NCBI GenBank assembly: GCA_035695565.1
Contig: DASRRX010000006.1
Coordinates: forward strand, 55,459-119,458
Direction of reading: 5' to 3'
Length of the DNA stretch: 64,000 nucleotides
Origin: Puia sp.
GTDB taxonomy: Bacteria > Bacteroidota > Bacteroidia > Chitinophagales > Chitinophagaceae
The translations under genes and the position numbers were made by a program. Shown here piece after piece: positions 10,669 to 29,788 of the stretch. The first letter of the stretch is position 1; each line of letters begins with the position of its first letter. The notes beneath the pieces were generated by a model. It did not search any database and was not told where the DNA came from. It saw only the letters and a list, made by a program, of their open reading frames with translations.

Positions 10669-11208
10669 ATGATACAAGAGGCTTTGTCGTGTCTCACCGA
10701 TGAGATGAATCTTTTTTTCAGGAGTAAGTTAAAGATCAATGAAGACAAGGCAGTCCTATCAGGCATTCTGAGTGCGGATGGGTCTGTTGCGATCCGGGAG
10801 GAGAACAAGATCATTATCACCCTGGTGAATGTGGAAAAGGAGACGATGATCAATGGGCTTAATACCGTTCCAAATACGGCTGCGCCCTTGAACATCAATT
10901 TGTACATCCTGTTCTCCGCTTATTTCTCGGCGGGGAATTATTCAGAGGCGTTGCGATTCCTGTCATTCGTAATGGGGTACCTGCAGCAAAAAAATGTGTT
11001 CAATCGCAGCAATACTCCACAGCTGGATAGTCATATTATGAAGCTGGTGTTTGAGATGGAAAATCTGAGTACTGAACGAATGAATAATTTGTGGGCCTCG
11101 CTTGGGGCGAAGTATATGCCGTCAGTGCTTTATAAGGCGCGGATGCTGACGATCGACGGATCGATCGTGCGGGAATACCGGCCGCCGGTAAGTGGAGTTC
11201 AACAATAA
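10669..11208 (+). CDS. CIS tail terminator/cap (DUF4255, Pvc16/Afp16-like)
   Basis: IIITLVNVEKE...PLNINLYILFSA..NYSEALRFLS..GYLQ..FEMENLS...NLWASLGAKYMPSVLYKARM; first gene of the cluster. Confidence 0.88.
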   Translation: MIQEALSCLTDEMNLFFRSKLKINEDKAVLSGILSADGSVAIREENKIIITLVNVEKETMINGLNTVPNTAAPLNINLYILFSAYFSAGNYSEALRFLSFVMGYLQQKNVFNRSNTPQLDSHIMKLVFEMENLSTERMNNLWASLGAKYMPSVLYKARMLTIDGSIVREYRPPVSGVQQ

Positions 11209-11215
11209 GCGTACT

Positions 11216-28442: not shown

Positions 28443-29788
28443 AGATCATGAATGCGAATGCTGCGGCCCTGACGAGGGAGATGGCCTGGCTGGCTGAGGT
28501 CATCAAGGTCCGGATGAAGCTCTTCCAGGGTCAGGAATGCGCTTACTCTGCGGCGCAGGAAGCGCCGGCGCCTGATCTCTCGAATGACGACTCATTATAT
28601 GGAAAGGTGGTCCGATACTATCGGATGACTGCGGCAGAGCGCATCATCCTGTCGTTGGCATTGGCGCCGCATTTACTACCGCATTTACTCGACGTCTTCT
28701 TTACCCGAAATGCCGAATATGACCGGGGTTTTACGGAATTTGGCGGGATCAAGGGGCAAAATCATGGCGGCCTTCTTCCAACGGGCGAGACGGCGGCTTT
28801 TCTGTTGGCGGGAGAAGGGTTGGAGCAGCGATTTCAGGTGATGGATCTCTTTATGGAGGATCATTTCTTTCGCAAGCACAATATCCTGTCGCTGACTCAT
28901 TCGCAAACAGATGAGCCTTTTCTGAGCGGGATGATCCGCATCTCCGAAGAATACCTTAGTTATTTCACCCGGGGCGTCGCGCACCGGCCGGAGTTCAGCG
29001 CCCAATTCCCCGCCCGGCGCATCCATACAGAACTCGACTGGTCAGAGCTTGTGCTGGAGAGTGAAACGATGGTGGGGGTCGAAGAGATCAGGGACTGGCT
29101 GGATTATGGTGACGTACTGCTACAGGATTGGGGAATGGCCAGGAAGCTAAAGCCGGGATTCCGCGCTTTGTTCCATGGTCCGCCGGGAACAGGTAAGACT
29201 TTCACGGCCACGCTGCTGGGTAAATCATCAGGTCGTGATGTATACCGGATCGATCTCTCGATGGTGGTGTCGAAATACATCGGCGAGACGGAGAAGAACC
29301 TTTCGAAGGTGTTCGATCAGGCGGAGAAAAAGAACTGGATCTTGTTCTTCGATGAAGCCGATGCTTTGTTTGGGAAGCGGACGCAAACATCGAGCGCAAA
29401 TGACCGGTATGCGAATCAGGAAGTGTCGTATCTCCTGCAGCGGATGGAAGATTTCCCGGGGGTGGTGATCCTGGCGACCAACCTGCGGGCCAACCTTGAT
29501 GAGGCGTTCAGCCGGCGGTTCCAGTCAATGGTATATTTCCCGGTACCTGGCCCCGAGCATCGGCTTTTGTTGTGGCAGCACTCCTTTCCGGAGAAGGCCA
29601 GTCTCGAGACCGGTTGTAATCTGCCATTACTTGCGGAGAAGTATGAGCTGACGGGCGGGGCGATCATGAATATAAGCCGATTTGCGTCGTTGCTTGCGAT
29701 CAAACGCGGGACGGAAATGATTGCGCATAAGGATATCCTTGCGGGGATCAGGAAGGAATTTGGAAAGGAGGGGAAGACGGTGCACTGA
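28433..29788 (+). CDS. CIS AAA+ ATPase (Afp15-like)
   Basis: Walker A GPPGTGKT, Walker B LFFDEAD, SKYIGETEKNL, RYANQEVSYLLQR; start 28433 or 28448. Confidence 0.96.
   Translation: MDIKIMNANAAALTREMAWLAEVIKVRMKLFQGQECAYSAAQEAPAPDLSNDDSLYGKVVRYYRMTAAERIILSLALAPHLLPHLLDVFFTRNAEYDRGFTEFGGIKGQNHGGLLPTGETAAFLLAGEGLEQRFQVMDLFMEDHFFRKHNILSLTHSQTDEPFLSGMIRISEEYLSYFTRGVAHRPEFSAQFPARRIHTELDWSELVLESETMVGVEEIRDWLDYGDVLLQDWGMARKLKPGFRALFHGPPGTGKTFTATLLGKSSGRDVYRIDLSMVVSKYIGETEKNLSKVFDQAEKKNWILFFDEADALFGKRTQTSSANDRYANQEVSYLLQRMEDFPGVVILATNLRANLDEAFSRRFQSMVYFPVPGPEHRLLLWQHSFPEKASLETGCNLPLLAEKYELTGGAIMNISRFASLLAIKRGTEMIAHKDILAGIRKEFGKEGKTVH

Follow-up and report, generated by a model that had tools for sequence, protein, structure and literature searches.

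The 64-kb stretch of Puia sp. DNA analysed here (the window) carries, at 10669-29788, what is on sequence grounds a complete single-sheath contractile injection system (CIS) of clade Ib. Taken together with a conserved inner-membrane protein gene on its flank and with candidate cargo genes on other contigs of the same genome, the locus is best read as a membrane-partnered machine resembling SalCIS and the type VI secretion systems of subtype iv (T6SSiv), with its cargo encoded in trans; we give this reading slightly better than an even chance. On this account the locus is a fairly ordinary, intact member of a described kind, namely a clade-Ib CIS that is SalCIS/T6SSiv-like and membrane-partnered. 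The apparent paradox of an injector with neither cargo nor exit then mostly dissolves: the cargo genes appear to have moved, and the membrane partner is conserved. Modestly new are the apparently clean excision of a core DUF4157 gene, a leader-defined and dispersed set of candidate cargo, and the presence of two different CISs in one genome.

Gene assignments in the window were based on a listing of open reading frames (ORFs) and on Pfam and Protein Data Bank (PDB) sequence searches (Table 1). All CIS genes between 10669 and 29788 lie closely packed on the + strand. The original prediction had described a complete system with one sheath gene and with VgrG and PAAR proteins free of effector extensions, and the searches and the lengths of the orthologues bear this out. 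No C-terminal effector domain was found in VgrG (orthologues 600-605 aa), and since orthologues likewise have a 600-aa VgrG and a PAAR protein of 84-100 aa, neither protein carries an effector extension. The prediction's single co-oriented operon holds for the structural genes, but a conserved membrane gene divergent from them belongs to the system too, so the system reaches past these coordinates.

Eight orthologous loci were inspected (L005/L008, L006, L007, L009, L012, L013, L014 and L015), and gene order was identical in all of them. The closest is L005/L008, with 78% identity in the gene for a 262-aa Cis13-like protein and with synteny that continues beyond the CIS to a gene in common for a PKD protein of the type IX secretion system (T9SS) class; by the Cis13-like gene, L005, L006 and L014 are 69-78% identical to the window. 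The 262-aa protein belongs to a conserved family of about 80 homologues of ~260 aa, with hosts that include Chitinophaga, Filimonas, Pedobacter, Mucilaginibacter, Microscillaceae, Desulfoluna and Chromobacterium. A scan of genome contigs with the ATPase returned just two distant loci. Compared with the closest orthologue, 17 of 17 genes are full-length, without frameshifts or stops, and have ratios of non-synonymous to synonymous substitution (dN/dS, a measure of past selection and not of present expression) of 0.03-0.30. For instance, the cap is 93% identical to its L008 orthologue (dN/dS 0.05), the ATPase 86% identical to that of L005 (dN/dS 0.08) and the plug 98% identical to that of L008. 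With such values and no frameshifts the locus is not degenerate; judged from its genes, it is intact, under purifying selection and part of a lineage widespread in Chitinophagaceae-like Bacteroidota.

The junction beyond the ATPase and candidate cargo in trans

The strongest pointer to displaced cargo lies at the 3' edge of the locus. In L005, L006 and L014 the ATPase gene is followed by a gene for a DUF4157 protein of 148-158 aa on the - strand and then by a lipoprotein gene of ~140 aa. In Filimonas L015 the tape-measure and ATPase genes flank a DUF4157 gene of 235 aa, and a betaproteobacterial locus (L003) encodes a DUF4157-peptidase C26 protein straight after the ATPase; the Chitinophaga agri-like L007 has no DUF4157 gene within 3 kb past the ATPase. 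In the window this site is a short spacer, and alignment of the junction with the orthologous loci reveals no remnant of a DUF4157 gene. The parsimonious reading of these arrangements is that the gene was ancestrally present and was then lost from the locus.

The lipoprotein gene that remains is 55-60% identical to the genes past the DUF4157 gene in L005 and L006, and L014 has a 140-aa gene at the same position. The closest relatives have the lipoprotein gene as divergent partner of the small DUF4157 gene, whose product has an HExxH motif; the window has kept the lipoprotein alone. The 143-aa ORF was considered as cargo and rejected, being a lipoprotein with no HExxH motif that is conserved beyond the DUF4157 gene in orthologues. 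Its function could lie in immunity or in the envelope; no paralogue of it lies beside P0001 or P0002, the two trans-encoded DUF4157 genes described below.

The other flank differs from that of the closest relative, a metagenomic one, as well. L008 carries a 745-aa gene (L008:1813-4050, - strand) between the PKD/T9SS gene and the membrane partner gene, and its product has a disordered leader and the motif VADGNCGIHALH (DGNCGIH). We take this motif to resemble that of an OTU-type cysteine protease. The protein has no Pfam match and no homologue anywhere in the window's genome. With the DUF4157 gene and the 745-aa gene both gone, linked effector-like genes would have been lost on both flanks.

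Candidates for the displaced cargo were found on other contigs. A six-frame search of the whole 5.5-Mb genome with PF13699 (DUF4157, now named 'eCIS_core') returned exactly two genes, P0001 on contig C5 and P0002 on contig C12, and no match on the window's contig. DUF4157 is a published core and effector-marker domain of extracellular CISs (eCISs) (PMC8213781). The DUF4157 domains of P0001 and P0002 are 60-65% identical to the locus-linked ones, with which they have the subfamily signature NxTG[ML]PDxLK...VHYNS...HLPHEAWHVVQQ...RVQPT in common. The C-terminal domain of P0002 is DUF5636, for which the NCBI annotation reads 'LirA/MavJ family T4SS effector' (T4SS, type IV secretion system); a PDB sequence search with this protein gave no useful match. 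The same DUF4157-DUF5636 fusion recurs in other phyla, inside a CIS operon in L011 and as an orphan in Pseudanabaena L010.

A second line of evidence comes from the N-terminal leader. In AlgoCIS the lumen is filled by cargo made up of a disordered leader, DUF4157 and a variable C-terminal domain (PMC8894135), and loading requires the leader and the Cis15 ATPase, not DUF4157 (10.64898/2026.05.27.728243). A 315-aa protein encoded two genes from P0002 has a leader (SKSRAVANNLAAKG) resembling that of the locus-linked protein of L006 (PRSQAAANNLTKAG). A hidden Markov model (HMM) of five leaders, from the locus-linked DUF4157 proteins of L005, L006 and L014, from P0001 and from the 315-aa protein, was run on the genome's 42,437 possible N-termini and found one new protein, of 411 aa (E 1e-3), with a TGL transglutaminase domain above the Pfam cut-off. 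When this protein was included in the HMM no further strong score appeared, the reversed-sequence maximum being 8.5 bits; a 416-aa protein on C5 has the motif RAIANNISSGGGARS...VQRI somewhat further from its start (13.6 bits).

The leader motif reads RA[IV]ANN[LI]..G.G.[KR]S followed by QR[VI], or in its longer, approximate form M..[ES]K[ST]...[SG]RA[IV]ANN[LI]..G.G.[KR]S, again with QR[VI] after it. Neither the 315-aa nor the 416-aa protein has a Pfam domain, and the 315-aa protein shows a Cys...His...Asp pattern suggestive of a papain-like enzyme. A protein on contig C16 that fitted a first version of the leader pattern was rejected as a signal-peptide protein of outer-membrane type with the motif far from its N-terminus. 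The 745-aa gene, the C-terminal domain of P0002 and the 315-aa protein have no relatives in the other loci examined.

These five proteins (P0001, P0002 and the 315-, 411- and 416-aa proteins) are the candidates for a cargo that is probably encoded in trans; their tie to the CIS of the window, and not to the second CIS described below, consists solely in the homology of their leaders to orthologue-linked proteins. The original prediction had proposed cargo in trans and suggested a genome search for orphans. That search yielded two DUF4157 proteins of the same subfamily and three leader proteins on other contigs, which together with the loss of DUF4157 from the locus support the proposal. Another of its suggestions, purely mechanical action without cargo, is not needed to explain the data. 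Such a device would puncture its target as an R-type tailocin does, with the VgrG-PAAR spike as the only active part and DUF4157 dispensable. It would agree with the lack of any cargo gene in the 64 kb and with the similar state of L007, but we regard it as highly improbable: the cargo-loading ATPase is kept under strong purifying selection, five intact proteins with DUF4157 and/or the lineage leader are encoded elsewhere in the genome, and no characterised clade-I CIS operates without lumenal cargo.

The locus may offer a neat case from nature of CIS cargo with no linkage at all to its machine, and the leader motif a possible finder of orphan cargo in Chitinophagaceae genomes.

The membrane partner and a possible mode of action

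Divergent from the cap gene lies a gene for a 708-aa protein with a signal peptide (residues 3-22), a large periplasmic GH18 domain and three C-terminal transmembrane (TM) helices (593-622, 629-662 and 670-702, by hydropathy). The best folds for its AlphaFold2 (AF2) model are 4wiw and SleL (4s3j), and SleL is also among the top sequence matches. All four loci compared (window, L008, L013 and L012) show this arrangement with the cap gene; the gene has a dN/dS of 0.20 and in L012 encodes a protein 30% identical to that of the window. The Salmonella salamae CIS has an integral membrane protein, SalCis20, whose periplasmic domain resembles the spore cortex-lytic enzyme SleL (PMC13266070); layout and SleL structural neighbour are common to both proteins. 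In Chromobacterium subtsugae the gene right after the ATPase (L009:18468-20813) encodes a protein of >815 aa that has a signal peptide and C-terminal TM helices and may be the SalCis20 equivalent, placed downstream instead of divergent from the cap gene.

The second component of interest is the Cis13-like 262-aa protein. Its gene lies between those of Cis11 and Cis12 in every inspected locus whose sequence covered that stretch, and this includes Chromobacterium L009, whose Cis12 matches SalCis12 best. The protein has no Pfam domain; its AF2 model (pLDDT 79) has as best PDB folds T4 gp9 and the N-terminal domains of tail fibres, both weak (E ~0.01, TM-score 0.26). In this model it has the look of a short trimer at the periphery of the baseplate, not of a long receptor-binding fibre, and it is the sole fibre candidate of the locus. 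The membrane-associated SalCIS/T6SSiv-like group, described in 2026, typically has both a membrane partner of the SalCis20 kind and a short gene of the Cis13 kind (PMC13266070).

These two conserved accessory proteins, which set the lineage apart, suggest how the machine might act. By analogy with SalCIS and T6SSiv, the baseplate would dock at the inner membrane through the Cis13-like and GH18 proteins, and the docked machine would fire outward through the envelope on contact. The Cis11/Cis12 cage would house the VgrG-PAAR spike, and the ATPase would thread the trans-encoded proteins into the tube lumen by their disordered leaders. Since release would not occur by lysis, no lysis cassette would be needed. 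SalCIS particles have been seen beside the inner membrane and were not detected in supernatants, and docking through SalCis13 and SalCis20 has been proposed (PMC13266070); Aureispira T6SSiv kills prey from an envelope anchor (10.1101/2024.01.29.577165). That the system works like SalCIS or T6SSiv is our leading hypothesis rather than a family assignment, and we place it a little short of an even chance. Still more tentatively, the leader could mark a genome-dispersed effector set of one CIS lineage, with all linked cargo shed and at least five unlinked genes used in its place, delivered from a T6SSiv-like machine docked at the inner membrane, possibly into eukaryotic grazers; we think this possible but doubtful. 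If it is true, CIS cargo could be predictable genome-wide from the leader alone, and a SalCIS-type membrane partner would be tied to a working, outward-firing system.

Several observations weigh against the membrane-partnered reading with trans cargo. The anchoring of SalCIS is itself still a hypothesis (PMC13266070). A phmmer comparison of the GH18 protein with SalCis20 (9R9A) gave no match even at E 10, 9R9A was not among the fold-search matches (the library runs to 2026-04-08 and may predate its release), and the GH18 catalytic motif appears degenerate. The window's Cis11 is without the helical domain IV extension of SalCis11 (residues 419-549): aligned to 9rce_A, it spans chain residues 146-438 and 543-1308 and skips ~439-542. 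The scores of Cis11 and Cis12 against AlgoCIS and tCIS also equal or exceed those against SalCIS. On the cargo side, the leader HMM was built on few sequences, P0002 has no clear leader motif, and some or even all of the trans-encoded proteins could in truth serve the second CIS, on contig C15. Finally, AlgoCIS is released without a known lysis cassette, so the absence of such a cassette discriminates between no modes of action.

That last point opens the way to a released, AlgoCIS-like eCIS, which would assemble in the cytoplasm, load trans-encoded cargo, leave the cell by an unlinked or unrecognised lysis function and bind its target through the 262-aa protein, with the GH18 protein aiding exit, for example by wall remodelling. 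AlgoCIS particles are free in the cytoplasm and found in the supernatant, with no lysis cassette described (PMC8894135), and the window has in common with AlgoCIS its cap-adaptor candidate, plug and cage. The best scores of Cis11 and Cis12 against AlgoCIS and tCIS and the missing SalCis11 extension would suit a released particle too, as would a GH25 muramidase gene that adjoins the second CIS. Against this, the locus has no Alg19-type or other long fibre, the 262-aa gp9-like protein being the only candidate; a conserved inner-membrane protein is linked in every relative checked; the nearest solved sheath is SalCis2; and there is no holin or endolysin in the 64 kb. We regard release as unlikely, though deserving serious consideration. 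The original prediction had called the exit of the machine unexplained. It was right that no lysis cassette lies in the 64 kb, but it overlooked the published SalCIS model and the release of AlgoCIS without a cassette.

The conserved membrane protein could also be taken as the target or trigger of a machine that acts inside its producer, like the cytoplasmic CIS of Streptomyces, hitting its own membrane under stress and causing regulated death or differentiation. CisA of Streptomyces (10.1101/2024.06.25.600559) offers a parallel for such a self-target or trigger; release or secretion of SalCIS was not detected, and its authors raise a 'domesticated/defensive' role (PMC13266070). We nevertheless consider intracellular action quite improbable, because the LirA/MavJ-like (a Legionella effector family) and transglutaminase candidates look outward-directed, nothing points to a developmental life cycle in this organism, and the large domain of the membrane protein faces the periplasm.

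Structural genes, neighbouring genes and a second system

Table 1. Features of the injection locus in the window and of the candidate cargo genes on contigs C5 and C12 (likely start positions are given where they differ from the ORF start).
Feature	Position	Strand	Basis or remark
Inner-membrane partner, 708 aa	8300-10426	-	Pfam GH18, hydropathy, AF2 fold
Cap / tail terminator (Cis16A)	10669-11208	+	Pvc16_N, E 1.7e-32
Cap-adaptor candidate (Cis16B-like), 312 aa	11192-12130	+	position between cap and sheath genes
Sheath (Cis2), single gene	12148-14001	+	Pfam Phage_sheath_1C
Inner tube protein (Cis1)	14053-14508	+	Phage_T4_gp19, E 1.7e-42
Second gp19-type tube / tube-initiator protein (Cis5)	14477-14968, likely start 14519	+	Phage_T4_gp19, E 2.3e-43
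Plug (Cis6 / Afp6 / Alg6 family), 63-aa ORF	14943-15134, likely start 14973	+	DUF5908, E 8e-14
Tube initiator (Cis7)	15147-15815	+	CIS_tube, E 3e-45
VgrG-like spike (Cis8), 600 aa	15820-17622	+	Phage_base_V
PAAR tip (Cis10), 100 aa	17644-17946	+	PAAR_motif, E 4.7e-25
gp25-like baseplate wedge (Cis9)	17943-18401	+	GPW_gp25, E 7e-20
Cis11, gp6-like baseplate/cage protein, 1241 aa	18411-22136	+	PDB sequence matches; no Pfam domain
Short Cis13-like baseplate-peripheral protein (candidate), 262 aa	22133-22921	+	position, conserved family, weak gp9-like fold
Cis12, gp6/7-like baseplate/cage protein, 971 aa	22851-25766	+	PDB sequence matches; no Pfam domain
Tape-measure protein (Cis14), 890 aa	25770-28442	+	CIS_TMP, E 2e-109
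AAA+ ATPase (Cis15), expected cargo loader	28325-29788, likely start 28433	+	Pfam AAA, E 1e-29
Spacer, about 42 bp	29789-29829	.	site of DUF4157 gene in closest orthologous loci
Small lipoprotein, 143 aa, lipobox LSAGC	29830-30261	+	conserved 3' edge of closest orthologous loci
P0001, 173 aa, disordered leader + DUF4157 only	C5:210824-211345		PF13699
P0002, 524 aa, DUF4157 + LirA/MavJ-like domain	C12:53735-55309		PF13699, DUF5636
315-aa leader protein, two genes from P0002	C12:51901-52848	+	leader
411-aa leader protein, starts MLQHADKTNDQSRAIANNLSRNGGGRS, TGL transglutaminase domain	C12:37978-39213	-	leader HMM, Pfam
416-aa leader protein	C5:150159-151409	-	leader motif

Among solved structures the sheath ranks first with SalCis2 (9r9h, E 5.5e-136, 458 bits), followed by Alg2 (7adz, 1.6e-93, 318 bits) and tCIS (7b5h, 5e-86), while Pvc and Afp sheaths in the PDB score 1e-50 or weaker. 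It is 617 aa long in the window, 600 aa in L005/L008 and 500-517 aa in L006, L007, L013, L014 and L015, lengths that point to a sheath insertion confined to the sub-lineage of the window and L005/L008. Cis11 matches Alg11 (7aeb_G, 9e-89), tCIS (7b5h, 5e-84) and SalCis11 (9rce_A, 3e-81); Cis12 matches tCIS (2e-77), Alg12 (2e-72) and SalCis12 (3e-49). The single sheath gene with its clade-Ib relatives, the plug and the enlarged Cis11/Cis12 pair place the system in clade Ib, the group of AlgoCIS, MAC, T6SSiv, tCIS and SalCIS. The 312-aa protein between cap and sheath gave no PDB sequence match as a single query, and the top match of a two-sequence profile made with an orthologue was the AlgoCIS cap adaptor 7adz_1A, at a weak E of 0.035; orthologues of this gene occur in L006, L007, L008, L012 and L013. 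Orthologues of Cis5 are 149-151 aa. The DUF5908 plug gene had been missed in the original prediction.

That prediction had also listed toxin, DUF4157, lysis, capsid/terminase and TssJLM genes as absent from the 64 kb, which Pfam scans of plausible genes across the window (no toxin, holin, endolysin, capsid, terminase or TssJLM) and the PF13699 search confirm. Canonical families of the type VI secretion system (T6SS), including the TssJLM or TssN-type complex, TssK and ClpV, had no Pfam match among the 64-kb genes, and in place of T6SS i-iii components there are an eCIS-type tape-measure protein, a cap and Cis11/12. Marks of an R-type tailocin or prophage (lysis cassette, capsid, terminase) were likewise not found in the 64 kb.

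The rest of the window is housekeeping and regulatory in character, with molybdopterin oxidoreductases, a T9SS-sorted PKD protein, two-component systems and ThuA. Converging on the 3' side of the locus, beyond a rhomboid gene, are a LuxR/GerE-type response regulator and a 7TMR-DISM histidine kinase (31409-34206, - strand); the pair is not found at the equivalent position in L005, L006 and L014. Adjacent GerE-domain regulators have been reported for eCIS loci (PMC8213781). A 126-aa ORF at 31352-31732 (+ strand) is probably no gene, given its odd Gly/Ala/Asp/Arg-rich composition and its position antisense to the response-regulator gene. Further along, a stretch at ~39886-42000 around an AAA_14/DUF4143 ATPase gene has a GC content of 0.41 against ~0.55 elsewhere and may be a small foreign insertion.

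A second complete and more divergent CIS lies on contig C15 at ~81.8-99.3 kb (- strand), with proteins 30-65% identical to those of the window. It has no counterpart of the cap adaptor, the 262-aa gene or the GH18 partner. An ECF-type sigma factor gene precedes it. Downstream, in a region that together with the CIS spans ~73,600-99,350, are genes for a 1247-aa protein ending in an Ntox15 nuclease-toxin domain, a Tdi1/GAD-like immunity protein, a Big_7-VWA protein, a GH25 muramidase of lipoprotein type and a PP2C-like membrane protein. C15 is an example of linked cargo in the same cell. One might then suppose that C15 is the working system and that the locus in the window has been silent or decaying since it lost DUF4157. 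The missing DUF4157 gene, the missing counterpart of the relative's 745-aa effector-like gene and the toxin-immunity pair on C15 could all be cited for this, but set beside 17 full-length genes and a record of past purifying selection the idea earns very little credence. Degeneracy, which the original prediction had held open as an objection, was not seen. For the membrane-partnered reading, the genome offers a tractable free-living Bacteroidota setting for the hypothetical SalCIS-type docking, and the second, toxin-immunity-linked CIS offers an internal comparison.

Comparison with known systems

Among characterised systems, SalCIS of Salmonella enterica subsp. salamae (PDB 9R9H/9RCE/9R9A, PMC13266070) is the best solved sheath relative of the window. 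It has been placed in a 'distinct cluster' of membrane-associated CISs (Ejaz et al. 2026). The two have in common a bidirectional architecture, a plug, a cage and a protein in which a signal peptide and a SleL-type hydrolase fold are followed by three TM helices at the C-terminus; a cap adaptor (a candidate here) and a short Cis13-like gene adjoining the cage genes are likenesses too, the last by description. SalCgo2, the small 'core effector' of SalCIS, has its HExxH motif at 99-103, where the locus-linked DUF4157 proteins of the orthologues have theirs at 101-113; judged by nothing more than size and the place of this motif, the small DUF4157 protein would be its equivalent. A SalCgo2-like gene is absent from the window's operon, present in the closest orthologous loci and found here in trans as P0001. 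Differences are that no sequence similarity to SalCis20 could be detected in the membrane protein and that the host of the window's system is a Bacteroidota organism of soil type.

AlgoCIS of Algoriphagus machipongonensis (PDB 7ADZ/7AEB, PMC8894135) is also a clade-Ib system with a single sheath, a Cis16A cap with an adaptor (a candidate here), an Alg6-type plug, a Cis11/Cis12 cage, a tape-measure protein and an Alg15-type ATPase, and a further likeness lies in its cargo architecture of disordered leader, DUF4157 and variable C-terminal domain. However, no gene for an Alg19-type Ig-like fibre is present in the window's locus, and whereas cgo1 and cgo2 lie in the AlgoCIS cluster, the window's cluster is without DUF4157 cargo. 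For the 18-gene AlgoCIS cluster no SalCis20-like membrane partner has been reported, while the window's locus has a candidate for one. The label 'AlgoCIS-like' in the original prediction is therefore apt for the cap-adaptor candidate, the plug and the cage proteins, but not for the fibre and in-cluster cargo, both absent, nor for the sheath, which is closest to SalCis2.

The T6SSiv systems of Amoebophilus asiaticus and Aureispira sp. (Böck 2017; 10.1101/2024.01.29.577165) resemble the window by description. They are clade-Ib systems of Bacteroidota with a Cis11 cage that are fired from the envelope without TssJLM, and SalCis13-like proteins have been reported in their operons (PMC13266070). 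Homologues of the Aureispira-type trans-envelope complex or antenna were not identified in the window, and T6SSiv arrays are not known here.

The tCIS of Anabaena (7B5H) is a further membrane-anchored member of clade Ib, and its Cis11, Cis12 and sheath are strong PDB matches to those of the window. It is anchored to thylakoids through extensions of its Cis12 (1335 aa), whereas the window's Cis12 has 971 aa and its host is without thylakoids. Afp and PVC, of clade Ia, have a core set in common with the window that includes an Afp6-like plug, the N-domain of the Afp16 cap, an Afp14 tape-measure protein and an Afp15 ATPase. They differ in having two or three sheath paralogues and Afp13 adenovirus-like fibres, and their scores against the window are much weaker.

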